DNA of 64,000 nt, from contig OZ243982.1 of the NCBI GenBank assembly GCA_965214805.1, positions 1,237,116-1,301,115 on the forward strand, in the 5' to 3' direction. The notes beneath the pieces are model-generated. The model saw only the letters and a program-made list of their open reading frames with translations. It searched no databases and was not told the DNA's origin. Shown here in pieces: positions 4,537 through 41,108 of this stretch. Each line of letters opens with the position of its first letter. The stretch's first letter is position 1. A program made the translations under genes and the position numbers. The DNA is from Thermoanaerobaculia bacterium (GTDB lineage Bacteria; Acidobacteriota; Thermoanaerobaculia; Multivoradales; Multivoraceae).

Positions 4537-6591
4537 ATGTATGGCCGGAACCAACCCGGCGGCTCCCGGTCGACCGTGGCGCGCCCGCGCCTGCTCTCGG
4601 CGGGAGTTCTGGCGGTGGTCGCCGCGGGCGCCACGTCCGCCGTCGCGCCCGTCGGGGCGGGCGTTGACGTGCCCAGTCTCGGGGATCCGACCGCCGGGAG
4701 GCTGGTGGGGCGCGTTTACGCCGACAAGGCGCCGCTTCCTGCGGCACAGGTCTACGTCTGCGACATGGCCGACAACGGCAGGCTCCTGGCGACGACCGAT
4801 CGCTTCGGGCGTTACGCCTTCCAGCCCCTGTCTGCCGGCGTCTACAGGGTAGTCGCCCATCGGCCGGGTTACGTGCCCGCGGTAGCGGAACTCACTCGCA
4901 CAACGGGCGAATCGGTCCAGTCGCTCGACTTCGAGCTGGGAACCCGGGCGCATCGCTCCGGCAGTGACGGCAAGGACGACGACGGCGGCCAGGAGGACTT
5001 CTGGTCGATCCGCGCCCGCATCCCCAGCGACGTGCTCCGCCAGATCCAGGTCGCCGAGGCGATGGCGGATGATCAGGGCTGGGCTCTCGAGACGGCGATC
5101 CAGCGGGAGCGATTCGAAGCCGAACTCAGGACTCTTTCCGGCGTCGAAGAGGCCGGCGAGGCCGGCGCCCTGGTGCTGGGCAGCCAGCTCGATCTCCGCA
5201 GCCGATTCGGCGAAACGCAGCTTGCGCTCCGTTCCGATCTGCGCCAGTTCAGGCGTCAGGCCTTCCGTGCCGACGCGGCGCAGCAGCCGGTCGGCGACAG
5301 CCAGGCCTTTGCGCTGGACGTGAACCATCGGGGTTCGAACATCCGGTTCACGTCGCAGCGCCATCGCTTCCAGGGTCCACCGGTCGGGTCCTGGGACGAC
5401 CTGGACTCCGTGGCCGCCGGACTGGAGAGCTACGGCGTGCGCGTGGAGCAGGCCGCCGGCGACGGAGCTTCCCACTTCGAGGCCCGTTACACCGCGGACA
5501 ACAACTTCCACCACGGCTTCGGTGATCTCTATGCCGGCCCCAGCGGGGTCCACAGTCAGGCGCTGGCGGCGATCGATTCACCCATGTCGTCGACGACGCT
5601 CGAGTTCCGCGGCGCCTACGAACGGCAGATCACGGCGAGTACGTCCCTCGAGACCGGCATCAGTTACCGCGAGCGCCAGGCCTACGGCGACGGCCGGCTG
5701 TCGAGTTGGGGCGAGGATCCTCACCAACGTTTCGACGTGTTCGGTCAGGGCGACTGGGAGATCCAGCCCACCGTCATCCTCGAGTACGGCATGTTCAGCA
5801 CCCTGAGCGACGGCAGTCTCTCGTTCACGCCCCAGGCCGGCTTCGTGGTCGAACTCGGCCCACGCTGGCTGGCCAGGATCGCGGCGAGCCAGCGGGTCGA
5901 CTCCGAACAGCTCCTGTTTCGTGACTTCCTGCCCGTGCAGTATCAGGACGACGAAACCTGCAGCAGGAGCCACGAGCACTGCTACCGGGTCAAGCTCAGA
6001 CGGCTCGGCGCATCGGGCCAGAACCACGGTCTCGAGTTCGGCGTCAATCGGCGGCAGTTCGCGGACAACGTCCGGCTGTACTTCAGCCGCGACATCTTCG
6101 ACCGGCTGGAGAGCCTGCTGCTGGTTGACGGCGACCAGGTCGAGGAAATCCAGTTCGGTCTTCAGCAGCGCCTGGGCAAGAGGATCCTGACCCGCGTCAG
6201 CTCCTCCGCGGCCGTCGGCGGCGGCGGTCTGCTGCGCGCCAAGGACGGGAGCAGTCTCCGCAACGACGTCCGCTACCTGCTCGCAAGCGCCGACACCCGA
6301 TTCGAGCGCAGCTCGACCGGCGTTCTCATCGCCTACCGTTGGGTCGAGCAGGAACTTTCGCCCATCACCCACGAGGGCGCCGACTTCCGGCCCTTCCGTT
6401 CGGACACCGTGCTCGCCGTGGAACGCATCGAAGTGGTGCTGACCCAGGACCTCCCCTGGGCCACGGGCCTGCAGAACTGGGCCCTGCAACTCGAGATGCA
6501 GCTCAGCCGCGGACACGCCCCGATCGAGTCCGGCCACGATCCCGACCAGCTTCGCCGCCGCGTCGTGGCTGGCATCGCCGTCCGCTTCTAG
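4537..6591 (+). CDS. Outer-membrane protein with an N-terminal carboxypeptidase-regulatory-like (CarboxypepD_reg) domain and a C-terminal beta-barrel
   Basis: Signal peptide RLLSAGVLAVVAAGATSAVAP; GRLVGRVYADKAPLPAAQVYVCDMADNGRLLATTDRFGRYAFQPLSAGVYRVVAHRPGY matches the CarboxypepD_reg fold; long beta-strand-rich remainder ending in IAVRF. Confidence 0.6.
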   Translation: MYGRNQPGGSRSTVARPRLLSAGVLAVVAAGATSAVAPVGAGVDVPSLGDPTAGRLVGRVYADKAPLPAAQVYVCDMADNGRLLATTDRFGRYAFQPLSAGVYRVVAHRPGYVPAVAELTRTTGESVQSLDFELGTRAHRSGSDGKDDDGGQEDFWSIRARIPSDVLRQIQVAEAMADDQGWALETAIQRERFEAELRTLSGVEEAGEAGALVLGSQLDLRSRFGETQLALRSDLRQFRRQAFRADAAQQPVGDSQAFALDVNHRGSNIRFTSQRHRFQGPPVGSWDDLDSVAAGLESYGVRVEQAAGDGASHFEARYTADNNFHHGFGDLYAGPSGVHSQALAAIDSPMSSTTLEFRGAYERQITASTSLETGISYRERQAYGDGRLSSWGEDPHQRFDVFGQGDWEIQPTVILEYGMFSTLSDGSLSFTPQAGFVVELGPRWLARIAASQRVDSEQLLFRDFLPVQYQDDETCSRSHEHCYRVKLRRLGASGQNHGLEFGVNRRQFADNVRLYFSRDIFDRLESLLLVDGDQVEEIQFGLQQRLGKRILTRVSSSAAVGGGGLLRAKDGSSLRNDVRYLLASADTRFERSSTGVLIAYRWVEQELSPITHEGADFRPFRSDTVLAVERIEVVLTQDLPWATGLQNWALQLEMQLSRGHAPIESGHDPDQLRRRVVAGIAVRF

Positions 6592-6606: not shown

Positions 6607-7821
6607 TTGCTGTCCCCCGAGGAAGCCTGGGCCGCCATCGCGGCGGAGGCAAGGACGCTCGAAGTCGAGCGAGTCTCCAGGGCGGACGCCGTGGGCAGGG
6701 TGCTGGCAGCAGGCCTGACGGCGACCGTCGACGTGCCCGCGCACGACGTCTCGGCGATGGATGGCTTCGCCCTCGGAGCCGATGTCGAACCGGGAGCCGT
6801 GCTGCCTGTCACGGGAATCGTCGCGGCAGGCGATCCGCCGGGAGCGGAGCTTCGATCCGGGGCGGCCATGCGGATCATGACTGGAGCGCCGACGCCCGCC
6901 GGGGCAGACCGGGTGGTCCCGATCGAACAGACCGAGTTCGAAGCCGCCGACGAAACAGGCGCTGCGCGAACTGTCCGCATCGTGGCGCCGGTGCCGGCGA
7001 ACCGCCACATCCGGCGGCAGGCCGAGGTCACCGCGACTGGCGGACCGCTGCTGGCCGCGGGAGAGATGTTGACACCCGGCGGTGCGGGCCTGCTGGCGAC
7101 CCACGGCATTCACGAGGCGCCGGTGCACCGCCGACCGACCGTTGCCACGCTCTCGACTGGCGACGAAGTCGTTCCGGCAGAGACAGAGCCGGGGCCGGGT
7201 CAGATCAGAGATTCGCACCGCGACTTCCTGCGGGCCGCCCTTTCGCAACTGGGCATCGAAGCGGTCGCGCTCGGCATCGCGCGGGACGATCCCGCCGAAC
7301 TCCAGGCGAAGGTCGAATGCGGCCTCGACTCGGACGTGCTCCTGATTTCCGGCGGTGTCTCCATGGGCGAGTTCGACTTCGTGGAACACGTGCTGGGCGA
7401 CGCAGGCCTCGGCTGCCGCATCCTGTTCGACACGGTCGCGATACAGCCCGGGAAGCCCCTGGTGGCCGCCCGCCACGACCGGGGCTGGGTGTTCGGCCTG
7501 CCCGGCAATCCGGCCTCGGCCATGGTCACGTACTGGCTGCTGGTGCGCCCCCTGCTGCGGCGCCTGACGGGCGCCGAAGACGGCTACTGGCAGGGCGCGC
7601 TTCGAGCCCGGCTCGAGGGCGACCTGCCGGGCGCGAAATGGCGCGACCGTTTCCTGCCCTGCCGGCTCCGGGTCGAGTCAGGGATGGTGCTCGCCGACCC
7701 GAGACCACCGCTGGGTTCCCACGACCTGGTCGCCTACGGCGCCGGCGCCGGACTGGTGCGGGTGTCGAAGTACAGTGAGCCCGCGGCTGCCGGCGATCCC
7801 TGCGACGTTCTGCCGCTATAG
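6607..7821 (+). CDS. moeA: Molybdopterin molybdenumtransferase MoeA
   Basis: 404 aa; MoeA N-terminal domain (VPAHDVSAMDGFAL), MoCF-biosynthesis domain (VLLISGGVSMGEFDFV) and C-terminal domain all in order. Confidence 0.9.
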   Translation: MLSPEEAWAAIAAEARTLEVERVSRADAVGRVLAAGLTATVDVPAHDVSAMDGFALGADVEPGAVLPVTGIVAAGDPPGAELRSGAAMRIMTGAPTPAGADRVVPIEQTEFEAADETGAARTVRIVAPVPANRHIRRQAEVTATGGPLLAAGEMLTPGGAGLLATHGIHEAPVHRRPTVATLSTGDEVVPAETEPGPGQIRDSHRDFLRAALSQLGIEAVALGIARDDPAELQAKVECGLDSDVLLISGGVSMGEFDFVEHVLGDAGLGCRILFDTVAIQPGKPLVAARHDRGWVFGLPGNPASAMVTYWLLVRPLLRRLTGAEDGYWQGALRARLEGDLPGAKWRDRFLPCRLRVESGMVLADPRPPLGSHDLVAYGAGAGLVRVSKYSEPAAAGDPCDVLPL

Positions 7822-8149
7822 GCGCGCCGCAACAGGCACGGCAGCCCCCGGACAGGGCGGCAAGGATCGTCCAGTGCAGATGGCCTACTGGCTCAGGGCC
7901 GCTCGCGGATCTCGAGATCGAGAGTGAATCGGGGGTCTCGGCGGGATGGACGTGACGCCTCCAAAGCCCTTGGGACCATCTGTCCCCGACTGTCACGCAA
8001 GGCGGCGTCGAAGTCGCGCGCTTCAAGCACCAGGCCGCAAGCCGCGGCCACGCCGATGACCGGCGCACGTGGCTCCACTGCCGCCGTCCGTGTGACGGAA
8101 CACAGCGGCGCGGCCGCCCTGGCTGCTACACTCACGCGTCGCCGACCAT

Positions 8150-8225
<76 letters not shown>

Positions 8226-8287
8226 TTCCGGTCGGCCTGAAACCGCGCGCCGCGGCGCTCGACGCCGCAAACACTCCTGGGGCCTGG

Positions 8288-8911
8288 CTAGCCGCCTGGA
8301 CGAGCGCTGTCGAGCATCGCCAGGAACGCCTGGCGCTGCTCCCGCATCGTGGACGCGGGGCCGACCGCGCGCAGGAACCAGGGGCCGCCGGGCGCTTCGA
8401 TCACTGCGCCGTACAGCGCGAAGTCCGGCTGGTCCGTGGTCGGGAAGCTGCCGACCGTGCTCGCCTTCACCATGCCCTCGAGCTCGATCCAGGTACGGCG
8501 GACGCCGTCGCTCTCGCGGCTCTGCGGCAGAGGCTCCGGAGCGCCGGCAGCGAGGACGACCTGGCTCTTCCAGCGTTCGATGTTGGCCGCCGCACCTCCG
8601 CCGCCACCGGGTCCGAAGTGGTACATCGACATCTCGCCCGGACCGCCGGAACCCGGAATCTCTGCCTCGAGCATCCGCATCGACGACCCGGGTTCGAGCC
8701 GGTTCCAGGCTGCCGGCAGCGCGATCGACACACCCCTGGCAGTCACCGGGGCCGACAGTTCGACTGTCCGGGCTGCTTCTTCGGCCTCCTCGGCCCCGGC
8801 GTTGCCCTGGGCCGGCGCATCCGGGCCGCAAGCCAGGAAAAGAAGGAGTGCCAGGCCGACCGCCGGTACGCCGGGCAGCGGGCCGGAGCGGCAGTGTCTT
8901 GGCATGGTCAT
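8288..8911 (-). CDS. Hypothetical lipoprotein
   Basis: 207 aa; signal peptide with lipobox LLLFLACG; Gly/Pro-rich secreted protein; no recognisable domain. Confidence 0.55.
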   Translation of the reverse strand: MTMPRHCRSGPLPGVPAVGLALLLFLACGPDAPAQGNAGAEEAEEAARTVELSAPVTARGVSIALPAAWNRLEPGSSMRMLEAEIPGSGGPGEMSMYHFGPGGGGGAAANIERWKSQVVLAAGAPEPLPQSRESDGVRRTWIELEGMVKASTVGSFPTTDQPDFALYGAVIEAPGGPWFLRAVGPASTMREQRQAFLAMLDSARPGG

Positions 8912-8977
8912 CGTCGGACTCCTCGTGCGGTCATGGATCCGGCCAACAGCCGGTGGTCAGAAGATATGCTGATCCGT

Positions 8978-9076
8978 GGAAGCGCTCGGGGGCTGGTGCC
9001 TTCCGCGGTCTTCAAAACCGTTGTCCGGGGCGTGATGCGTCACGGGGGTGGGTTCGATTCCCATGCGCTTCCGCCA
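8978..9076 (+). tRNA. selC: tRNA-Sec (selC), anticodon TCA
   Basis: 99 nt: 8-bp acceptor GGAAGCGC/GCGCTTCC, 6-bp D-stem GGGGGC/GCCTTC with a 4-nt loop TGGT, anticodon stem GCGGT/ACCGT with loop CTTCAAA (TCA reads UGA), long variable arm with CGTGA-TGCG-TCACG hairpin, T-arm GTGGG-TTCGATT-CCCAT, discriminator G, CCA. This 8/5 architecture plus the long extra arm is diagnostic for bacterial tRNA-Sec rather than tRNA-Ser. Confidence 0.85.
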
Positions 9077-9094
9077 CCGGCACACGCCGTGCAG

Positions 9095-9457
9095 CTACGA
9101 GGCCGTGGCGGCGGAACTCTCGCCCTTCGCGGAGGAGGCAGAAGCGCCCGCTTTCCTGCCCGAGTCCGAGGACGACTCCTTCGGCGTGGACTTGCCGTTG
9201 CTTCCCGAGCCGTCGCCAGTCGCCGCGGCGCCGCCGGACCCGGATTCCCCGGATTCCCCGGCCGCACTCCTGTCCTTGCGGGCGTAGTCGCTCACGTACC
9301 AGCCGCTGCCCTTGAACTGGAACGCGGGCGCGGAGAGCAGCTTCTTCAGGCTGCTCCGGCCGCATTCCGGACACTCCTCCAGGGGCGGCGAGGCGAACGC
9401 CTGTATCGCCTCCAGCGTGGTCTCGCATTCCGCGCAACGGTACTCGTAGAGAGGCAT
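9095..9457 (-). CDS. FmdB-family zinc-ribbon protein (putative regulatory protein) with a Ser/Gly-rich tail
   Basis: MPLYEYRCAECETTLEAIQ...ECPECGRSSLKKLLSAPAFQFKGSGWY is the canonical CxxC...CxxC FmdB zinc ribbon, followed by a low-complexity S/G/A tail. Confidence 0.85.
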   Translation of the reverse strand: MPLYEYRCAECETTLEAIQAFASPPLEECPECGRSSLKKLLSAPAFQFKGSGWYVSDYARKDRSAAGESGESGSGGAAATGDGSGSNGKSTPKESSSDSGRKAGASASSAKGESSAATAS

Positions 9458-9665
9458 GACGGCGGCGGATCATAGCAGGAGGCTGCAGTCTCGGTCCTGT
9501 CCGGTCTTGTCCCATGACAGATGAGCCTGAAGAAGCGCGGTCAATTCCACGAGAGACGCGCCTGAGCGAGCGTCAGGGATCCCCGAAGGATGGGTTCGCC
9601 GCCGCGGAAGAGCACGCGGCGGCGGTGTTCCCGGTTCCGGCTCGCAAGGACCGCCGGGACCCGCC

Positions 9666-11717
9666 TCACCTGTTCTGGCTGTCCAGCAGCAGCCGCGCGC
9701 GTGCCGCGATCGCCTCCGCGCTCAATCCCAGGTTCTCGACCAGGTCGCTGTACGGGGCGGAGGCGCCGAAACGGTCAAGACCGAGCACGTCGCCGTCGGA
9801 CCCGGTCCAGCGCTCCCAGCCCAGAGTCGCCGCGGCCTCGACGGCCAGCCGGCAGCGGACGCCCGGCGGCAGGACCTCGTCGCGGTAGGACTGCGGCTGG
9901 GCGGCGAAGGCTTCCCATGAAGGCATGCTGACGACGCGGACGCCGCGACCTTCGGCCGTGAGCTCGGCGGCCGCGCGGAGCGCAGGAGCGACCTCGGAGC
10001 CGGTGGCGATCACGATCAGGTCAGGCTCGGCGACACTGTCGGCCACGACGTAGGCCCCGCGCGCAACGCCCTCCAGAGCAGTGTCGACGGACGCTTCGAG
10101 CACGGGCAGCTTCTGACGGGTCAGGACCAGCGCACAGGGGCCCTGCGTCTCGAGCGCGAGAGCCCAGGCGGCGGCTGTCTCGTTGGCGTCGGCCGGGCGG
10201 ACGACGACCAGCCCCGGCACTGCGCGCAGGTGCGCAAGGTGCTCGATCGGCTGGTGGGTCGGCCCGTCCTCGCCCAGGAAGACGGAGTCGTGGGTGAAGA
10301 CGTAGATCGTCCGCAGCTCCATCAGCGCGGCCAGCCGCAGGCTCGGCTTCAGGTAGTCGAGAAAGCACAGGAAGGTGCCGCCGTAGGGTCGAAACAGGCC
10401 GGACAGGGCCAGGCCGTTCATCGCGGCGGCCATCGCGTGCTCACGCACGCCGAAGCGGAAGTGGCGTCTCGGGGCGCCGGCGGCGTAATCGCCTTCGCCT
10501 TCAAGCAGCGTGTTGTTCGAGCCGGTGAGGTCCGCTGAGCCGCCGGCGAGTTCGGGCATCAGGTCGTTCAGCGCGTTCAGGGTGACGCCGGAGGCGGAGC
10601 GGGTGGCGATCGGGCCGGAGGCGGGATCGAAGCGGGGCAGGGCGTCTCGCCAGCCGTCGGGCGGCGCCGCGGCCAGGCGGCGGTCGAGTTCAGCCGCCTT
10701 CTCGGGATACTCGCGGCGGTAGTCATCGAGCAGCCGGCGCCACGCGGCCGCGGCGTTCCGGCCGAAGTCGGCCGCCGGAGCGAACGCTTCGCGGGCCGCG
10801 TCAGGCACCCGGAACTCGGGATCGAGAGGCCAGCCCAGAGCCTTCTTGGTGGCGACCGTTTCGTCCGCGCCCAGAGGTGCGCCGTGGGAAGCCGCGCTGT
10901 CCTGCTTGTTCGGGCTGCCAAAACCGATGTGCGTGGCGACCTTGATCAAGGTCGGACGATCGGTCTCGGCCAGCGCACTCTCGTACGCTGCCGCAAGAGC
11001 CTCGACGTCGTTGCCGTCGTCCACCGACAGCGTGTGCCAGCCGTAGGCCTCGTAGCGGCCGAGCACGTCCTCGGTGAAGCAGAGGTCGGTCGAACCGTCG
11101 ATCGTGATCCGGTTCGCGTCGTAGAGGACGTTCAGCTTGCCGAGTCCGAGGTGGCCCGCCAGGGAGCAGGCCTCCGAGGCGACGCCCTCCATCAGGTCGC
11201 CGTCGCTGGCCAGCACCCAGGTCCGGTGGTCGAACAGGGTGAAGCCGGGCCGGTTGAAGCGGGCTGCGAGAAGTTGCTCGGAGATCGCGATGCCTACGGC
11301 TGCCGCGATGCCCTGGCCCAGCGGACCCGTAGTCACTTCGACGCCCGGAGTCAGCCCGTGCTCGGGGTGACCGGGAGTGAGCGAGCCGTACTGCCGGAAG
11401 TTCCGGATCTCGTCGAGGCCGAGGTCGTAACCGGCGAGATGAAGGAGACCGTAGATCAACGCCGAGGCGTGGCCGCAGGAGAGTACGAAGCGGTCCCGGT
11501 TCGGCCACCGGGGAGCCTGGGGCGCGAAGCGCAGGTACCGGGTCCACAGCAGGGCCGCCATCGGCGCCTGACCCATCGGCGCCCCAGGATGCCCGCTGTT
11601 CGCCCGTTCGACCATGTCGACGGCGAGGAAGCGCAGCGTGTCCGTCGCCGCGTCCAGCGGCTGTCGCTGCGGAGGCGGTCCGGCGTCGGACGTGCCGGAG
11701 GCCTCGGCCTCGTTCAT
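9666..11717 (-). CDS. tkt: Transketolase
   Basis: 683 aa; thiamine-diphosphate-binding N-terminus ([22 protein letters not shown]), pyrimidine-binding and C-terminal domains present. Confidence 0.95.
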
Positions 11718-12259: not shown

Positions 12260-12613
12260 TCAGAAGAAACCCAGTTCGAGCCTGGCTGCTTCGCTCATCA
12301 TCGCCGGATTCCAGGTGGGATCCCAGACCACCTCGACCTCGGCTCCGCCGACACCCTCGACGCCGCGCACCTTCCGCTCGACATCGCCCGGCAGGGACTC
12401 CGCGACCGGGCAGTGCGGCGAGGTCAGGGTCATCTGCAGCTTGACGTGCGCGTTCTCATCGATCCGTACGTCGTAGATCAGGCCGAGTTCGTAGACGTCG
12501 ACCGGGATCTCCGGGTCGTAGACGGTCTTCAGCGCTTCGACGATCCGGGCCTCGAGATCCGTCGTGTCCCCTGGGCCAATGTCCAGAGCACCCCTGGCCG
12601 CCTCTTCGTCCAT
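12260..12613 (-). CDS. sufT: Fe-S cluster assembly protein SufT (DUF59/MIP18 family)
   Basis: 117 aa with the DUF59 core VYDPEIPVDVYELGLIYDV...TLTSPHCPVAESL. Confidence 0.85.
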   Translation of the reverse strand: MDEEAARGALDIGPGDTTDLEARIVEALKTVYDPEIPVDVYELGLIYDVRIDENAHVKLQMTLTSPHCPVAESLPGDVERKVRGVEGVGGAEVEVVWDPTWNPAMMSEAARLELGFF

Positions 12614-12658
12614 CGTCCACTTCTCCCGTTGCGGATGTCCGAGCTGTCGCAGCGGAGC

Positions 12659-13111
12659 CTACTCGGTGGATACCGCCTCCGCGTCGCCGCCTTCGAGTGC
12701 GGCACGGAGAGCATGCCACGCCAGGGTCGCGCACTTGATGCGAACCGGAAAGTCCCTGACGCCGCTCAGGACCTCGAGCTTGCCGAGCGGCACGCCGTTG
12801 CTTCCGTCGTTGTCCCCGGTCATCAGAGCCAGGAAGGCCGCCATCAGCGCTTCGGCCTCGGAGCGCTCGAGTCCCCGTACGGCCTCCGTCATCAGCGATG
12901 CCGAGGCGGTCGAGATCGCGCAGCCTACGCCCTCGAAGCTCACGCGATCGATCCTGGCGCCGGCAGCGCGAAGGTAGACCTTGATCCTGTCGCCGCAGAG
13001 CGGGTTGTGGCCCTCGATACAGACCGACGCCGGCTCCAGCGCACCGAAGTTCCGGGGCGAGCGGTAGTGGTCGAGGATGACCTGCTGGTAGAGATCGCGG
13101 AGGTCCGACAT
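12659..13111 (-). CDS. sufU: SUF Fe-S scaffold / sulfur acceptor SufU (NifU-like)
   Basis: 150 aa; conserved GHNPLCGDRIKVYL and GVGCAISTASASL Cys ligands, C-terminal CATLAW. Confidence 0.9.
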   Translation of the reverse strand: MSDLRDLYQQVILDHYRSPRNFGALEPASVCIEGHNPLCGDRIKVYLRAAGARIDRVSFEGVGCAISTASASLMTEAVRGLERSEAEALMAAFLALMTGDNDGSNGVPLGKLEVLSGVRDFPVRIKCATLAWHALRAALEGGDAEAVSTE

Positions 13112-13130
13112 GGCGACTGAAAGCCCGAGC

Positions 13131-14450
13131 CTACGTCCCGAAGCCGAAGATCCGGCGCACTTCGTGCAGACCGGAGGTCAGTCGGTCGACTTCTTCGACG
13201 GTGTTGTACATCCCGAACGAGGCCCGTACGGTGGCCGGTACACCGAGGCGATCCATCAATGGCTGCGCACAGTGGTGGCCCGCCCGGATCGCGATTCCCT
13301 GCTCGTCGAGGATGGTTGCCACATCGTGGGGGTGAGCGCCGTCGATCATGAACGACACGACGGCCGCCCTCACCGAACCGGCGCCGGACGCCTGATGCCC
13401 CAGCACCCGAACCCAGGGAAGATCGTCCAGTTGTTCCAGAGTGCGGGAAAGAAGCTGCTGCTCATGCAGCTCGATCCGCTCCAGGCCGACCGACTCCAGG
13501 AAATCGACCGCGGCGCCGAGCCCGATCGCCGGCGCAATGCTGGGCGTTCCGGCTTCGAAACGGTGAGGCGGCACGGTGTACTCCGAGCGTTCGAAAGTGA
13601 CCCGGGTGATCATCGCGCCGCCGCCCTGGAATGGCGGCATCGAGGCCAGCAACCCGGCGCGGCCCCACAGCCCGCCGATACCGCCGGGGCCGTACATCTT
13701 GTGGCCGGAGAAGGCGTAGAAGTCGCAGCCGAGCGCGGACACGTCAACCTCCATGTGTGGCACGGCCTGGGCGCCGTCGACGACGACGACGGCATCCGAG
13801 CGGTCCCGAACCAGCGCGACCACGGCGGCCACGTCGTTCACGGCGCCCAGAGCGTTCGAGACGTGGGCAAGCGCTACCACTCTGGTGCGTTCGCCGATCA
13901 TCTCGGCCATCGCGTCCAGGTCGAGGTCGCCGTCGTCGGTGATCGGCGCCGCCCGCACGCGGGCGCCGGTCTGCTCGCAGACGAGCTGCCACGGGACAAT
14001 GTTCGAGTGGTGCTCCATCTCGGTCAGCAGCACTTCGTCGCCGGGCCGGAGCTGCGTGCGGCCATGGCTCTGAGCGACCAGGTTCAGGCTCTCGGTGGCG
14101 CCGCGGGTGAAAACCAGCTCGGCGCTGCTGGCGGCGCCGATGAAGCGGGCGATCTTGCCGCGGGCCGTCTCGTAGGCGTCGGTCGACTGCTCGGACAGCG
14201 CGTGGACGCCGCGGTGAGCGTTCGCGTAATACGTGCGGTAGCAGTCGCTGACCGCGCTGATGACCGCCTCCGGGCGCTGGGCGCTGGCCGCGTTGTCCAG
14301 ATACACCAACCGGTGGCCGTGAACTTCCCGGTCGAGGATGGGGAACGAGTTGCGCAGACGGTCGACGTCGAGGGGCCTGACGTGGGGCACGGCGGAGCGC
14401 ACGACCGCCGCCGGCCGTTGCCGCTCAGCCATGGGCGCCGGAGCCGTCAT
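13131..14450 (-). CDS. sufS: Cysteine desulfurase SufS (PLP-dependent, class V)
   Basis: 439 aa; PLP-lysine region FYAFSGHKMYGPGGIGGLWG and the RAGHHCAQP active-site Cys loop. Confidence 0.95.
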   Translation of the reverse strand: MTAPAPMAERQRPAAVVRSAVPHVRPLDVDRLRNSFPILDREVHGHRLVYLDNAASAQRPEAVISAVSDCYRTYYANAHRGVHALSEQSTDAYETARGKIARFIGAASSAELVFTRGATESLNLVAQSHGRTQLRPGDEVLLTEMEHHSNIVPWQLVCEQTGARVRAAPITDDGDLDLDAMAEMIGERTRVVALAHVSNALGAVNDVAAVVALVRDRSDAVVVVDGAQAVPHMEVDVSALGCDFYAFSGHKMYGPGGIGGLWGRAGLLASMPPFQGGGAMITRVTFERSEYTVPPHRFEAGTPSIAPAIGLGAAVDFLESVGLERIELHEQQLLSRTLEQLDDLPWVRVLGHQASGAGSVRAAVVSFMIDGAHPHDVATILDEQGIAIRAGHHCAQPLMDRLGVPATVRASFGMYNTVEEVDRLTSGLHEVRRIFGFGT

Positions 14451-14454
14451 CGGC

Positions 14455-15822
14455 CTACCGGCTCCCGCCGGCCGGACCGCCGTTCAGGCTCGCTCGCAAC
14501 CGGCCTTCGAGGTCCTGCCTGAGGGGCTCGAAGGACGCCTTGTCGACCAGCTCGCGGGCAAACGCGTAGACGAGCATTCCGTGGGCTTCCTCGCGGGGAA
14601 GGCCGCGGGCCCTCAGGTAGAAGAGCGCGTCCTTGTCCAGCCGGCCGATCGTCGAACCGTGGGTGCAGCGCACGTCGTCGGCGAAGATCTCGAGCTGGGG
14701 GTTGCTGTTGGCGAGGGCCGACCTGGACAGCAGCAGGTTGCGGTTCGTCTGCTTGGCGTCCGTCTTCTGCGCCGCCTGATGCACATGGATGCGGCCGTTG
14801 AAGACGGAACGCGCCCGGTCGTCGAGGATCCCCTTGTAGAGCTGGTGGCTCGTCGTATGCGGCTGCCGGTGCTCGACGCGCATGTGGTTGTCCACGAACC
14901 GGGAACCGGCCACCACGTAGAGGCCGTCCAGGGTGCAGTCCGCCCCCTCGCCGTCAAGTAGCGCCACCGTGTCGTTGCGTACCAGGCCGCCCCCGAACGC
15001 CAGGGACAAGGAGTCGAAGACGGCCGATCGGTCGAGTTGCGCGTGTTGAAAACCAAGATGAATCGCGTCCCTGCCATCGGCCTGGAGCCGGGTGTGCCGG
15101 AGCACGGACCCTGGCCCGCAGACGAACTCGGCGGCGGGGCAGACGAAGTAACCCGAAGCATCCGGATCGGCCGCATAGGTTTCGACGATCGAAGCCTGGC
15201 TGTTCTCGCCGGCCACCACCAGCAGACGCGGAAAGCTGACCTCGCGCGGGGCGGGCGCACCGTCGCCGGCATTCCCGGGGCTCGACGCCGGCAAGCTCAG
15301 CCAGAGCACCTGAATCGGTCTGTCGATCACCGCCCCTTCCGGAATCACGATCGCCGCCCCGTCTTCGAACAGGGCGGTGTTGAGGGCCGCGAACGCATGC
15401 ACGCCGGCGTCCACGCTGCACGACGCGAGGCCGCAGACGGTCGCACCGAGATGTTCCACGATCGCGTCCGCGCTGTCGCCGGCAGCGGGCAGATCTGCCA
15501 GAGCCACCGCCCCAACCCGCTCCGGAGGCGAGGAGGCCTCCGGCACGCTGCGCCCGTTGACGAACACCATGCGGTGGCAGTCGGGATAGAGGAATGGCGC
15601 AGCTTCGTCCCGCAGCGCCTGCCGTGGGGCCCTCACCGGCGTCGTACGCAGCAGCGGGCCGAGGTTCGTCTGCCGCCACTCCTCGTTGCGGGAGGTCGGG
15701 AAGCCCGCGGCCTCGAAACGCTCGATCGCCTGTTGACGCCGAGCGCGCAGGAACCCGGCCTCCCCGGCGCGGCGGGAGTAGAAGTCCAGGAAGGGACGGG
15801 TGGAGTGACCGGCGGCGGTCAC
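14455..15822 (-). CDS. sufD: Fe-S cluster assembly protein SufD
   Basis: 455 aa SufB/SufD-fold protein lying between sufC and sufS; the C-terminal half aligns to the SufBD beta-helix. Confidence 0.9.
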   Translation of the reverse strand: MTAAGHSTRPFLDFYSRRAGEAGFLRARRQQAIERFEAAGFPTSRNEEWRQTNLGPLLRTTPVRAPRQALRDEAAPFLYPDCHRMVFVNGRSVPEASSPPERVGAVALADLPAAGDSADAIVEHLGATVCGLASCSVDAGVHAFAALNTALFEDGAAIVIPEGAVIDRPIQVLWLSLPASSPGNAGDGAPAPREVSFPRLLVVAGENSQASIVETYAADPDASGYFVCPAAEFVCGPGSVLRHTRLQADGRDAIHLGFQHAQLDRSAVFDSLSLAFGGGLVRNDTVALLDGEGADCTLDGLYVVAGSRFVDNHMRVEHRQPHTTSHQLYKGILDDRARSVFNGRIHVHQAAQKTDAKQTNRNLLLSRSALANSNPQLEIFADDVRCTHGSTIGRLDKDALFYLRARGLPREEAHGMLVYAFARELVDKASFEPLRQDLEGRLRASLNGGPAGGSR

Positions 15823-16583
15823 CCGATCCGATCCCTTCCGACGCCGTCGGTCAGACCGGAGTAGCCCTTCTCCTCGAGCTCGTGAGCGAGGCCGCTGCCG
15901 CCCGAGCGGACGATTCGCCCCTCGAGGAGAACATGGACGTGGTCCGGCACGATGTAGTTGAGAAGCCGCTGGTAGTGGGTGATCACCACGAAGGCCCGGT
16001 CCTCGCTTCGGAGCGCGTTGACTCCGGCAGCCACTGTCTTCAGGGCGTCGATGTCGAGCCCGGAATCCGTCTCGTCGAGCACCGCCAGCCGCGGCTCGAG
16101 CACCGCCATCTGGAGGATCTCGTTCCGCTTCTTCTCGCCGCCCGAGAAGCCCTCGTTGACGTGACGCCGCAGCAACGCCTCGTCCACGTCGACCAGCTTC
16201 GCGCGCTCGCGCAGCAACTTCAGAAAGTCCATCGCGTCGAGTTCCTGCTCCCCTCTCGCCTTGCGAATCGCGTTGAGCGCCGCCTTGAGGAAGTAGCTGT
16301 TACCGACGCCCGGGATCTCTACCGGGTACTGGAACGCCAGGAAGAGACCGGCGTGGGCTCGCTCTTCCGGGGCCATCTCCTGCAGGTCGCCGCCATCGAG
16401 TTCCAACGAACCCGTCGTGACCTCGTAGTCCTCGCGCCCCGCGAGCACCTGGGCCAACGTGCTCTTGCCGGAGCCGTTCGGACCCATCACGGCGTGGACT
16501 TCGCCGGCCCTGACTTCGAGGTCGACGCCGCGCAGGATTTCCTGTTCTCCGACCCTCGCGTGAAGGTCTCTCACACTCAGCAT
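15819..16583 (-). CDS. sufC: Fe-S cluster assembly ATPase SufC
   Basis: 254 aa from ATG at 16583 (MLSVRDLHARVGEQEILRGVDLEV...); Walker A GPNGSGKST, signature FSGGEKKR, Walker B LAVLDETDSGLD. The 532 aa track ORF is this gene plus a shadow N-terminal extension into sufB. Confidence 0.95.
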   Translation of the reverse strand: MLSVRDLHARVGEQEILRGVDLEVRAGEVHAVMGPNGSGKSTLAQVLAGREDYEVTTGSLELDGGDLQEMAPEERAHAGLFLAFQYPVEIPGVGNSYFLKAALNAIRKARGEQELDAMDFLKLLRERAKLVDVDEALLRRHVNEGFSGGEKKRNEILQMAVLEPRLAVLDETDSGLDIDALKTVAAGVNALRSEDRAFVVITHYQRLLNYIVPDHVHVLLEGRIVRSGGSGLAHELEEKGYSGLTDGVGRDRIG

Positions 16584-16684
16584 GTCCGGTTGTCTCCGGT
16601 TATCTCCGTGCGGCGCCTGAGCAGCCGCCAGCGGCTCCGCCAGCAACAGGCGCCCCCTTCGCGGGGGTCTGGCAGCCCGGGCTG

Positions 16685-18133
16685 CTAGCCGACGCTGCCC
16701 TCGAGACTGACCTCGAGCAGCTTCTGCGCCTCCACCGCGAACTCCATCGGCAGTTCGCGGAACACTTCCTTGCAGAACCCGTTGACGATCATGGAAACGG
16801 CATCCTCGGTCTCGATGCCCCGTTGATTGCAGTAGAAAATCTGGTCTTCGCCGATCTTCGAAGTCGACGCTTCGTGCTCCATCTGGGCGCTCGGATTGGC
16901 GACGTCGATGTAGGGGAAGGTATGCGCGCCGCAACGGTCCCCGATCAGCATCGAGTCGCACTGCGAGAAGTTCCTGGCGTCCTCCGCCGAACGCAGAATC
17001 CGCACCGCGCCGCGGTACGTGTTCTGGCCCTCGCCCGCCGAGATCCCCTTGGAGACGATCGTGCTGGACGTGCGCTTGCCGACGTGGATCATCTTGGTCC
17101 CGGTGTCGGCCTGCTGCCGGTTGTTGGACACCGCCACCGAGTAGAACTCGCCCACCGAGTCGTCGCCCTTCAGGATGCAGCTCGGGTACTTCCATGTCAC
17201 GGCCGAACCCGTCTCGACCTGCGTCCACGAGATCTTGCTGCGCCTGCCTTCGCACAGGCCCCGCTTGGTGACGAAGTTGTAGATGCCGCCCACGCCGTCC
17301 TCGTTGCCCGGATACCAGTTCTGGACAGTGGAGTACTTGATCCGCGCGTCCTCGTGCGCGACCAGTTCGACGACCGCCGCATGCAACTGGTTCTCGTCGC
17401 GCATCGGCGCGGTGCAACCTTCGAGGTAACTGACGTGGCTGCCCTCGTCGGCGATGATCAGCGTGCGCTCGAACTGGCCGGTGTTCATCGCGTTGATGCG
17501 GAAGTAGGTGGACAGCTCCATCGGGCAGCGCACGCCCTTGGGAACGTAGACGAAGGAACCGTCCGAGAACACGGCCGAGTTCAGGGCGGCGAAGAAGTTG
17601 TCCCGCCGCGGCACCACCTTGCCGAGGTACTTGCGCACCAGCTCGGGATGGTCCTGCACGGCCTCGGAGAACGAGCAGAAGATCACCCCGAGTTCCGCCA
17701 GCTTCTCGCGGAACGTGGTCGCCACGGAAACGCTGTCGAACACCGCGTCCACGGCGACGCCTGCCAGCATTTCCTGCTCCTTGAGCGGGATGCCGAGTTT
17801 CTCGTACGTGGCCAGAATCTCGGGATCGATCTCGTCGAGACTCCTGGGCCGATCACCGTCGCTCTTCGGCGCGGCGTAATAGCAGATGGACTGGTAATCG
17901 ATCGGCTCGTAGCGCACGTTCGCCCACTGCGGCTCGACCATCTTCAACCAGCCCCGGTAGGCGCGCAGCCGCCAGTCGAGCAGCCATTGCGGCTCGTTCT
18001 TCTTCGCCGAGATGAACGCGACGATTTCCTCGCTCAGGCCCGGCGGCGCCGTGTCCTGCTCGACGTCGGTGACGAAGCCGTACTCGTACTCGCGCTGCGC
18101 CAGGGCTTCGATGGTGTCCGTCGCGGTGGCCAT
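16685..18133 (-). CDS. sufB: Fe-S cluster assembly protein SufB
   Basis: 482 aa from ATG at 18133 ([20 protein letters not shown]...), preceded by GAGGAG; the track ORF start at 18328 would overlap the Rrf2 gene; the ATG shares its A with the upstream TGA (TGATG). Confidence 0.95.
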
Positions 18134-18594
18134 CAGGAACTGCTCCTCAGCGAAATCAGGGGGGATGCGTCGGCAACGGCGGCCCCGGCCATGAAGCTCG
18201 GTCGGGCCATGTCGGCGATCCTGATGTCCTCGAGCGCTCTCCGCACCGCCTGGTTGATCCGCCGCCAGTTCTCCCTTACGCGGCAGAACGCCTCGTAGGA
18301 ACACTCGAGGTCCGAGTATTCGCTGCACTCGGTCAGCGCGATGGGCCCGTCAAGGGCGACGATCACGTCGGCGACGCTGATCTCGGCAGCCGAGCGCGCC
18401 AGCTCATAGCCTCCCCGCACCCCGCGGTACGAGGTCAGCAACCCGGACTTCGCCAGCAGCTTGAGGATCTTGCTGACCATCGGCGCCGGCAGGTGCGTCT
18501 GCACCGCAAGTTCGGCGGCGGCTGCCTGGCCGGTCTGCGCGAGCTGGGTCACGAGCACGATGCCGTAATCGGCTTGCTTGGTCAGTCGGAACAT
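18133..18594 (-). CDS. Rrf2-family transcriptional regulator (IscR/SufR-like) heading the suf operon
   Basis: 153 aa; w[30 protein letters not shown] and three C-terminal-half Cys (C..C....C) typical of Fe-S-sensing Rrf2 proteins. Confidence 0.85.
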
Positions 18595-23240: not shown

Positions 23241-24833
<1,593 letters not shown>

Positions 24834-38924: not shown

Positions 38925-41108
38925 TCATCTTACGCCCCGGACAGTCTTCTGCTCGATCTCGAGGTAGACGGGAGCGGGACCGAGCTGCACCGGTCCGGAA
39001 GGCAGCACCACGCCATCCCGGTCGCGTGCGGCGCGCACGCCGATCCGGGGACGGCAGGCCCGGCCGCGGCGGTCCAGCGCCCATTGCACCTGGACCTCGC
39101 GGCTCGGCGTCGTTGCCCGATAGCCGCGCACACCCGCCGGCAACGGGAGGCGTTCCACCCGGGCGCCGGCCAACTCGCGCTGGAGCTGACGCAGGGCGCG
39201 GTAGGCCGGCCGCCGTCGCAAGGAACCGCCTCGGGGGTCGACAAGCCCGTAGCCAGCCGCCGACAACTGCCACCAGTAGACGCGCTCGACGAGACCGGTC
39301 CCCAGAGCCTCGAGGCAGTAGCGAACGAGGTAGCTGGCCTGGGTGTCCTCGTCCACCGCGACATCTCGTCCGGCGGGCGCGTGAGGCCCTTCCCTGAGCG
39401 GCCAGTTGAACTCGGTGATCCAGCTCCGATCCGACGCACAGTCCGGAGCCCGACGGGCAAGCGCCCGCAGCAAGGCCAGCTTGCCCGCGAGGTCGAAACC
39501 GAGTTGAGGGTTCTCGGGCGCCCCTCGCCGGTCGACGTAGAGCTGACTGGCAAGGATGTCGAAGCGATGCTCCGGCAAACCCGAATGAACCAGACCGGCC
39601 GTTGCGTGGGGCTCGAAGTCGATCACCGCCGGAGCGAGGACGCGCGCATCCGGATTCGCCGCCCGCACGGCTTCGCCGGCAGCAGCCAGCAGATTCCAGT
39701 ACTCGTCCGGGCGCCACACGCCCCACTTGCTGCGGTTGGGCGCCTGACCGATGAGGAACGTGCTGCCCAGGGGCGAAAGGGCGGCGACGGCCTCCTCCAC
39801 GCGCCGCAGCCAGAGTCCGTTGTCCCGGACCAGCGATCGGTCCTGAGCAAGATGGAACACGAGATCGGCCGGCTGCAGCGCCCTCCGGGCGAGGATCTCC
39901 GCCAATCGCAGCAGATCCCTGTCCAGACCCTGCCAGAGATGGAAGCGCAGCAGAACGCTCTCCACCCCGAGATCGTCGAGCGCCTCGACCAGAGCGCCGA
40001 CCGGCGCCGAGTCCGGACCCACCGCCACGCCAAGTCCGCGAAAGGGGACTCTGTCCGGTGCTCGTTCGATTCTCCGGCGGAGGCGCTTCCCCTCGACGAT
40101 CGTTGCGAGCAGCGGCCCGGCGGCGCGAAGCAGGGGCCGGGCGTGGCGGGCGGCGTCACGCAGGCGAACTCCGAGGCGCTGGCCGCGTGTCGCCTGCTGG
40201 TGCGGCTGGTCAGTGAGCGGATCCCAGACCGCCCGCTCCTGGGGCTTCGCTCCGCGGTCGGAGGCCGGAATGTGGGGATGGGCGCGGCGGCGCGGCAGCA
40301 GCAGATCGGCGAGGCGTCGCAGCCCGCGGCGAGCGCCGTCCTTGGTCCGGATCCTGAGACGGAAGCCGTGGTGACAGACCCCGAACCAGAGCCGCTCCAA
40401 CCGGGACAACCCGCCGGAGCGATAGCCGCGCAGGTACTCCGACCGGTCCGCAGACCGCAACACCGGCATCCTGCCCAGGTCCCGCAGGCGCTGACTCGCC
40501 GACAGCCGGCGCCGGAAGCGGGCCCGGTTGAGATCCACGAGGTACAGCTCCGCATCCGTGGTCGGGGCCGCCAGCAGCACGTTGCCCGAGGTCAGGTCCC
40601 GAAACCAGATGCCGTGACGATGCAACTCCGCGGCCAGAGCGCCGACCCGCCGCAGCAGCGCCGGCCCGTCGATTCCCGGAAAACGCGCCGCGCCCTCTCC
40701 CGCATTCAACGCCCTGAGCACATGCCGCAACTCCGTGGCCTCCGGCACCAGCCGGCACACGAACCACGCAGGACCCTCCAGGGCCTTCGACTCGGCATAG
40801 AGAATCGGTTCCGGCGTCGCGATGCCCAGCTTCCCGAGCCGGCGCGCGGCATCGAAGCTCAGGCGCGCCCGCGTGCCTCGGCGGCGCCGGCGGAGTCTGG
40901 CGTGCAGGTCGTCATGGCGGAACTGCTTCACGACCACGGCGACATCGCCCTCGTTCCGGCTGCCATGCCATGCCGTTTCGTACAGGTAGTTCCTGCCCCA
41001 ATGCAGGCTGCGGGTGGCCTTGGCCGGATCGAGGAGGCGCCTGAGCGCGGCCTCGAAGTTCGCGTCCAGGTCGCCGGGGACGGCCTCCGGCGCCACGGCG
41101 CCGCGCAA
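38925..41108 (-). CDS. Fusion protein: N-terminal lipopolysaccharide-kinase-like domain (Kdo/WaaP family, PF06293-like) plus C-terminal glycoside-hydrolase-like TIM-barrel domain
   Basis: Single open frame with no stops from just after the rng stop to 38925. Residues NYLYETAWHGSRNEGDVAVVVKQF...LHRHGIWFRDLTSGNVLL...LYLVDLNRARF match the Kdo/WaaP LPS-kinase fold. About 450 aa downstream follow with (beta/alpha)8-like periodicity and a WITEFNWP...VYWWQL motif resembling the nucleophile strand of clan GH-A hydrolases (GH5/GH39-like). Start uncertain: TTG at 41108 or GTG at 41096; an upstream ATG would overlap rng by about 200 nt. The 1610 aa track ORF is this gene plus a shadow running through rng and rodA in a different frame. 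Confidence 0.6.
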   Translation of the reverse strand: MRGAVAPEAVPGDLDANFEAALRRLLDPAKATRSLHWGRNYLYETAWHGSRNEGDVAVVVKQFRHDDLHARLRRRRRGTRARLSFDAARRLGKLGIATPEPILYAESKALEGPAWFVCRLVPEATELRHVLRALNAGEGAARFPGIDGPALLRRVGALAAELHRHGIWFRDLTSGNVLLAAPTTDAELYLVDLNRARFRRRLSASQRLRDLGRMPVLRSADRSEYLRGYRSGGLSRLERLWFGVCHHGFRLRIRTKDGARRGLRRLADLLLPRRRAHPHIPASDRGAKPQERAVWDPLTDQPHQQATRGQRLGVRLRDAARHARPLLRAAGPLLATIVEGKRLRRRIERAPDRVPFRGLGVAVGPDSAPVGALVEALDDLGVESVLLRFHLWQGLDRDLLRLAEILARRALQPADLVFHLAQDRSLVRDNGLWLRRVEEAVAALSPLGSTFLIGQAPNRSKWGVWRPDEYWNLLAAAGEAVRAANPDARVLAPAVIDFEPHATAGLVHSGLPEHRFDILASQLYVDRRGAPENPQLGFDLAGKLALLRALARRAPDCASDRSWITEFNWPLREGPHAPAGRDVAVDEDTQASYLVRYCLEALGTGLVERVYWWQLSAAGYGLVDPRGGSLRRRPAYRALRQLQRELAGARVERLPLPAGVRGYRATTPSREVQVQWALDRRGRACRPRIGVRAARDRDGVVLPSGPVQLGPAPVYLEIEQKTVRGVR

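Follow-up and report, generated by a model that had tools for sequence, protein, structure and literature searches.

The question raised by this locus is whether a 99-nt element in the genome of an uncultured bacterium is a working gene for the selenocysteine tRNA (selC), in a region where no other gene for the use of selenocysteine (Sec) is found. We will call the window the whole stretch of DNA which has been analysed, 64,000 nucleotides long. A preliminary description of it had recognised a selenocysteine tRNA by an 8-bp acceptor, a 6-bp D-stem, a long extra arm and a TCA anticodon. All four of them are seen in the 99-nt sequence. The gene and its neighbours are presented in Table 1.

Table 1. 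Position of selC, its sequence elements and the neighbouring genes in the window
Feature	Position	Strand	Description	Evidence
moeA (molybdopterin molybdenumtransferase)	6607..7821	+		Pfam MoeA_N, MoCF_biosynth, MoeA_C
tRNA-Ala(GGC)	8150..8225	+		ARAGORN, Rfam
Lipoprotein gene	8288..8911	-	Divergent upstream neighbour	Signal peptide, lipobox-like LFLAC
Putative -10 hexamer TATGCT	8965..8970	+	Ends 7 nt upstream of the mature 5' end	
selC	8978..9076	+	tRNA-Sec(UCA), 8/5 bacterial type, 3' CCA encoded	ARAGORN, RF01852, cloverleaf, covariation
Anticodon TCA (reads UGA)	9012..9014	+	In loop CTTCAAA	
FmdB-family zinc-ribbon gene	9095..9457	-	Convergent downstream neighbour	Pfam Zn_ribbon_8, 1.1e-14

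We will start with the identity of the gene. ARAGORN calls a tRNA-SeC(tca) with exactly the same span of 99 nt. The Rfam model of the bacterial tRNA-Sec, RF01852, matches positions 8978–9072 from end to end (model positions 1–91 of 91) with 69.3 bits and E = 4.4e-12; its gathering score is 47. Within the tRNA clan CL00001 it is the match kept at this place, scoring above the general tRNA model RF00005. The identity proposed in the preliminary description is thus upheld by both checks.

The anatomy of the molecule can be followed arm by arm. The acceptor stem, read directly from the sequence, has 8 bp, GGAAGCGC/GCGCUUCC, and a linker of 2 nt comes after it. The D stem has 6 bp, GGGGGC/GCCUUC, two of them G.U pairs, and its loop is the tetranucleotide UGGU. 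The anticodon stem contains 5 bp, Watson-Crick or wobble, with a C.U juxtaposition at the position of a possible sixth pair; it carries the 7-nt loop CUUCAAA. The extra-arm region of 26 nt forms a 9-bp interrupted stem. The T stem has 5 bp, GUGGG/CCCAU, and opens with a G.U pair. In this way the acceptor branch reaches 13 bp in the 8/5 configuration. At the 3' end we find the discriminator G73, followed by the encoded CCA. The energy of this explicit cloverleaf is -45.1 kcal/mol, only 0.8 kcal/mol from the unconstrained MFE of -45.9. The MFE fold is different from the cloverleaf, and it is unexceptional when compared with shuffled sequences (z = -1.33). Since this value is so small, the case for selC rests on the score of the covariance model and on the comparative evidence.

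Most of these features are those of the bacterial tRNA-Sec represented by RF01852, which includes the molecules of E. coli and Aquifex aeolicus: the 8/5 branch, the 6-bp D stem with a 4-nt loop, the UCA anticodon, the long extra arm, G73, the encoded CCA and the G.U pair which opens the T stem. A 13-bp acceptor branch of the 8/5 type is a criterion for tRNA-Sec (PMC5389517), and the 6-bp D stem with a 4-nt D loop is the determinant recognised by SelA (PMC7609411). The differences from the bacterial tRNA-Sec which have been studied are small: the extra-arm region is somewhat longer in the window, with a species-specific 1x1 internal loop, the anticodon stem has the additional C.U juxtaposition, and the lineage is an uncultured one of Thermoanaerobaculia.

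Comparison with homologs gives a more precise view of the structure. We scanned metagenomes with a pattern built only from the acceptor stem and the T-arm core of selC; at least 120 loci were returned. The loop CTTCAAA is present in every tRNA of the 120 metagenomic loci listed. An alignment was built from the window and the first 80 loci; it contains 69 unique tRNA-Sec sequences, in which both this loop and G73 are invariant. The cloverleaf of the window fits the 69 homologs with 94.1% of the cells occupied by standard pairs, vs 44.7–56.1% in controls with slid 3' partners. For covariation the score reaches 0.426, and in the slid controls it does not exceed 0.151. Double-sided changes among the 69 homologs are found in five of the six pairs of the D stem, in four of the five pairs of the anticodon stem and in all nine pairs of the extra arm. 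The acceptor stem and three G-C pairs of the T stem are uninformative in this respect, since they are set by the search pattern. The other two T-stem pairs were left free in the pattern: the one adjoining the fifth pair appears as U-A, C-G, A-U or G-C in different homologs; the fifth, the G.U which opens the T stem, is kept in 68 of the 69.

The bacterium which carries this gene can be placed from the rest of the window, which has 69% G+C. Pfam searches identify many core genes: rpoD, dnaG, mutS2, mreBCD, pbp2, rodA, rng, ruvAB and gyrA; also thrA, asd, thrB, thrC, the SUF operon, tkt, pckA and acs. The tkt gene is found some 600 bp from selC, and the closest relatives of its product among the matches listed are from 'Candidatus Multivorans sp.' (89% identity in amino acids) and from a Thermoanaerobaculia MAG (87%), both of them Acidobacteriota. 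The host is an uncultured soil member of Thermoanaerobaculia, in the Acidobacteriota. We found no literature on selenocysteine in Thermoanaerobaculia, nor on Ca. Multivorans.

A second genome of the same species was found through a homolog of the lipoprotein gene which precedes selC. It is a closed contig of 4,202,391 bp (L201; ENA ERZ25070786, ctg150442c), in which the lipoprotein is 98% identical. The two sequences are collinear over 18.5 kb, with 97.5% identity in DNA, and L201 has an identical selC in the same place. Six more distant relatives (L202–L207) were chosen by lipoprotein homology, from 83% down to 46% identity. Their selC is 88–96% identical to the copy in the window. The flanks of the gene in these six relatives behave in a completely different way: only 18–33 of the 45 nt upstream and 15–21 of the 30 nt downstream are identical, near the level of unrelated sequences. 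The substitutions in selC are mostly found in the extra arm, or else they are exchanges of G.U for G-C in the D stem. Compared with L202 and L203, a base pair of the extra arm has been lost in the species of the window and L201, to which the 1x1 internal loop of this arm is specific. The gene is intact in all eight genomes. These sequence comparisons indicate that selC is under purifying selection and is not a relic, because it is conserved while its flanks diverge until they are nearly random.

One short element upstream is an exception to this divergence. A hexamer TAnnnT is found 7–9 nt before the 5' end of the tRNA in seven of the eight loci of the clade, the other upstream DNA having diverged. 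A simple consensus scan detected neither a sigma-70 promoter nor an intrinsic terminator at selC. From its conservation, the hexamer TATGCT of the window is likely to be the -10 element of a promoter which belongs to selC itself.

Taken with the score of the covariance model, these observations make it highly probable that we are dealing with the functional selC of an uncultured Thermoanaerobaculia bacterium (Acidobacteriota). It is an ordinary, canonical and well conserved gene, which stands alone and belongs to a thoroughly known kind.

We should now ask where the rest of the Sec machinery is found. The preliminary description had seen no selA, selB, selD or formate dehydrogenase gene in the window, and this is also the result of Pfam searches on essentially all genes of the 64 kb. 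It had also reported that no ORF has the appearance of a selenoprotein gene. Our scans agree: no ORF of the window has an in-frame TGA with a coding signal on both sides, save for gene junctions and one antisense artefact, located in moeA. Two scans were carried out: the first asked for at least 40 codons before and after the TGA, and the second accepted a Sec codon as near as 10 codons to the start. A third-position G+C of the coding type was demanded on both sides of the TGA. Pairs of ORFs in the same frame separated by a single stop were considered as possible selenoproteins, and all of them are ordinary gene junctions with a ribosome binding site and a start codon. A TAG stop is found in three of the six real same-frame junctions which were inspected (6589–6591, 12659–12661 and 23241–23243). 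Another TAG, at 9285–9287, is in a frame which runs antisense to fmdB; it does not close a real gene.

One gene had the size of a candidate for selB, about 700 aa (38925–41100, minus strand), and it proved to be a kinase fusion of the Kdo/WaaP family. It extends from 38925 to about 41100 and combines the LPS kinase domain with a large C-terminal region which has no Pfam match. The gene adjoins those of a Wzm/Wzt O-antigen ABC transporter and is masked by a long antisense ORF. A strong spike of AT skew (0.267 at 38–40 kb) coincides with it.

The absence of Sec genes extends to the surroundings of selC in the relatives. No sel or selenoprotein gene is found within 10 kb on either side of selC, about 20 kb in all, in the seven relatives L201–L207. 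Among all the loci retrieved, a GTPase motif of SelB appears only in one unrelated Bacillota locus. We also looked for SelA proteins: the 120 matches listed contain none from the closed genomes of the clade. This negative carries little weight, since about 8,000 clusters share a plateau of 58–70% identity and only 120 matches are listed. The lipoprotein homologs and the SelA matches come from different MAGs, as their nearest NCBI accessions are about 27,000 apart.

One could conclude from this absence that selC is an orphan, which has lost selA, selB and selD or never had them, and which survives as a decaying relic, an attachment site or a regulatory RNA. We consider this unlikely. The lack of any Sec gene in the 64 kb of the window and in the surroundings of the gene in seven relatives agrees with an orphan, as does the lack of SelA from the closed genomes of the clade among the matches listed. 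The lipoprotein gene also occupies the position which selA has beside the most similar tRNA-Sec genes listed. The conservation of selC is against it: a relic would decay as fast as its flanks, which are saturated with changes, and those found in selC preserve its structure. The absence of SelA is uninformative for the reasons given above. Finally, a selC or a selA which stands alone is nothing abnormal. In E. coli selC stands alone, away from selAB and from selD, an arrangement similar to that of the window. In a Thermoanaerobaculia MAG (L208) it is selA which stands alone, so that scattered sel genes are normal in this class and their lack near selC is not alarming.

Other observations speak for the use of Sec. 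The metagenomic loci listed whose tRNA-Sec is most similar to that of the window are L084 and L132 (94 of 99 positions each) and L145 (92 of 99). In all three of them selA is directly adjacent to selC, in divergent orientation; this is also the case in L106. SelA proteins labelled as Thermoanaerobaculia by NCBI exist, and for Acidobacteria there is a report of selenoproteins (PMC1794560). The purifying selection on selC and the presence of selA beside the most similar tRNA-Sec genes listed both give indirect support to the use of Sec. Very probably selA, selB, selD and the genes for selenoproteins are located elsewhere in the genome of the host, and the organism makes selenoproteins. This lineage of Thermoanaerobaculia is thereby marked as a probable user of selenocysteine. 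Annotators of its genomes should expect genes interrupted by UGA, which would otherwise be called truncated or split ORFs.

Another reading is a tRNA which only resembles tRNA-Sec and acts as an opal suppressor, inserting serine or cysteine at UGA: either an allo-tRNA, with an 8/4 or 9/3 branch, or a tRNA-Cys(UCA) of the selC* type. That the gene of the window is one of them appears very improbable to us. Such tRNAs do score well on the covariance model of tRNA-Sec, and allo-tRNAs are common among Acidobacteria (PMC5389517). Those described in this phylum by Mukai et al. 2017 (PMC5389517) have a D arm similar to that of tRNA-Sec and a long extra arm, as in our case. However, their acceptor branch has 12 bp, either 8/4 or 9/3, and their anticodons are varied, whereas selC in the window has 13 bp (8 + 5) and UCA. 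The fifth T-stem pair is the G.U kept in nearly all homologs, and the pair adjacent to it covaries. The tRNA-Cys(UCA/GCA) encoded by selC* are found in Deltaproteobacteria and other anaerobes (PMC5389517); they also have the shape of tRNA-Sec and sometimes the anticodon UCA. They differ by U73 instead of G73, by a modified 8/4 fold instead of 8/5, and often by the presence of selB* or cysS* downstream. Neither gene is found in the window, where fmdB and tkt are the genes which follow. Furthermore, it is a genuine selA that accompanies the closest homologs among the loci listed.

There is practically no chance that the element is a mis-called tRNA-Ser or a pseudo-tRNA, the outcome which according to the preliminary description would count against selC. 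It is true that tRNA-Ser shares with tRNA-Sec the long extra arm and G73, and that the MFE fold is not the cloverleaf. But tRNA-Ser has a serine anticodon, a 7/5 branch with 7 bp in the acceptor, and a large D loop on a short D stem of 4 bp, none of which is found in selC with its 8-bp acceptor, 6-bp D stem, 4-nt loop and UCA (PMC7609411). RF01852 beats RF00005, all eight genomes have conserved the gene in an intact form, and ARAGORN, the explicit cloverleaf and the covariation in 69 homologs all agree with tRNA-Sec.

If the gene is the functional selC which we propose, its use in the cell would follow the known bacterial Sec pathway (PMC1794560, PMC7609411). A promoter of its own, immediately before the gene, probably drives the transcription of the tRNA. 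SerRS would charge it with serine, guided by the long extra arm and G73. The Ser-tRNA would then be converted into Sec-tRNA-Sec by SelA, which would recognise the 6-bp D stem and the 4-nt D loop; the selenophosphate required by SelA would be provided by SelD. SelB would then carry the product to those in-frame UGA codons which precede a SECIS hairpin. For SelB the main determinant would be the 8-bp acceptor stem, which would also be the reason for a poor binding to EF-Tu. The features of tRNA-Sec which SerRS, SelA and SelB read have been described (PMC7609411, PMC5389517), and all the structural determinants named for the three proteins are present in the sequence of selC. We infer the enzymatic steps from this established knowledge; what the analysis itself has shown is the gene together with its structure, conservation and context.

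The neighbourhood of selC has a definite organization. In the preliminary description selC was said to lie on the plus strand between two genes of the minus strand, for a lipoprotein and for an FmdB zinc-ribbon protein. This was confirmed by the signal peptide and lipobox of the first one and by the Pfam match of the second one, a protein with a CxxC...CxxC zinc ribbon and a low-complexity tail. The lipoprotein has no Pfam match. Its AlphaFold2 model is a confident one, with a pLDDT of 86.9, and the top matches of a Foldseek search against the PDB are PsbP proteins, the best one with E = 2.2e-6 (e.g. 2xb3, 2vu4). Lower matches are Tsi3, proteins of the EagT6/DUF1795 type and MTC28. According to this model, the lipoprotein is predicted to be a periplasmic scaffold similar to PsbP/Mog1.

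These neighbours are found again around selC in other genomes. The lipoprotein gene adjoins selC in all seven loci with a homolog (L201–L207, 46–98% identity) and is present in nine of the 120 metagenomic selC loci listed. A homolog of fmdB is found at a distance of up to about 1 kb from selC in about 26 of the 120 metagenomic loci listed. The gene moeA is near selC in five of these 120 (L107, L127, L093, L135 and L173) and also in L201, L202, L205, L206 and L207. The tRNA-Ala(GGC) is near selC in L201–L205. The recurrence of the lipoprotein, fmdB, moeA and tRNA-Ala around selC in the relatives indicates that selC is no recent arrival and belongs to a linkage group of old date (moeA, tRNA-Ala, PsbP-like lipoprotein, selC, fmdB). 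A frequent variant has the order selC, PatA_N/DUF4388 gene, FmdB zinc-ribbon gene (L098, L099, L112, L124, L146, L160, L206, L207 and others). In contigs from soil and sediment it often continues with genes for a sensor and regulator of the PilS/PilR type and for a T2SSE ATPase.

Two genomes of the Ca. Multivorans type (L001 and L002), the closest ones among the matches listed, share synteny with the window only on the side of tkt, a PTPase gene and the SUF operon. The sole break is found at the 3' end of tkt, at 9458–9680 in the window and at about 12040 in L001/L002. The genes which the window has on the side of selC are either elsewhere or absent in these two genomes. The SUF operon (12260–18594, minus strand), about 3 kb from selC, contains an Rrf2 regulator, sufB, sufC, sufD, sufS, sufU and a SufT-like FeS_assembly_P gene. 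Enzymes of the SufS type can act on selenocysteine as well; the operon shows no sign of a link to selC.

The strict pairing of selC with the gene of a PsbP-fold lipoprotein is mildly unusual, the only feature of the locus which is so. In the loci listed with the closest tRNA-Sec (L084, L132 and L145) the place of the lipoprotein gene is taken by selA. The pairing might mean that the lipoprotein handles selenium, for instance by periplasmic binding or uptake. Alternatively, the clade might keep a conserved tRNA-Sec without a canonical SelA. We give little credit to either. We know of no connection of the PsbP/Mog1-like scaffold with selenium, and this fold is a generic scaffold which lends no support to a functional link. 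A conserved gene order together with dispersed sel genes is a far simpler explanation. In all other respects selC is a routine housekeeping RNA gene, which raises no new question.

We will finally discuss selC as a site of integration. Genomic islands which target this gene are well known: LEE and PAI-I are found at selC in E. coli. Several of the loci related to the window have similar features. In L088, L091, L107, L140 and L174 a second copy of the final 20 nt of selC is found 1.4–8.5 kb downstream on the same strand, as an att-like direct repeat. Integrases of the tyrosine-recombinase type abut selC in L157 (4719–5825) and in L204, where the enzyme is of the phage type and lies on the 5' side of selC (8094–9077). 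In the latter locus selC is intact, and three additional tandem copies of its last ~22 nt come after it, with a period of 134 nt (9263–9730). The locus has the appearance of an integration site which was left scarred or was used repeatedly. The 3' side of selC also bears cargo of the defence type: a TIR protein in L107 (547–2082), a PRTase-CE together with an ORC/Cdc6-like gene in L144 (2832–4612), and the R subunit of a type I restriction system with a Schlafen domain in L135 (3410–7102). From these sequences we conclude that selC is an island hotspot in related soil bacteria, with repeats, integrases and defence-type cargo. The window differs from them. The 27 nt at the 3' end of its selC are present as a single copy in the 64 kb, even when up to three mismatches are allowed, and no integrase is found by Pfam among its genes, so that the site is unoccupied. 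The selC of the window can therefore be used as a clean reference for the site which bears defence islands in related soil bacteria.
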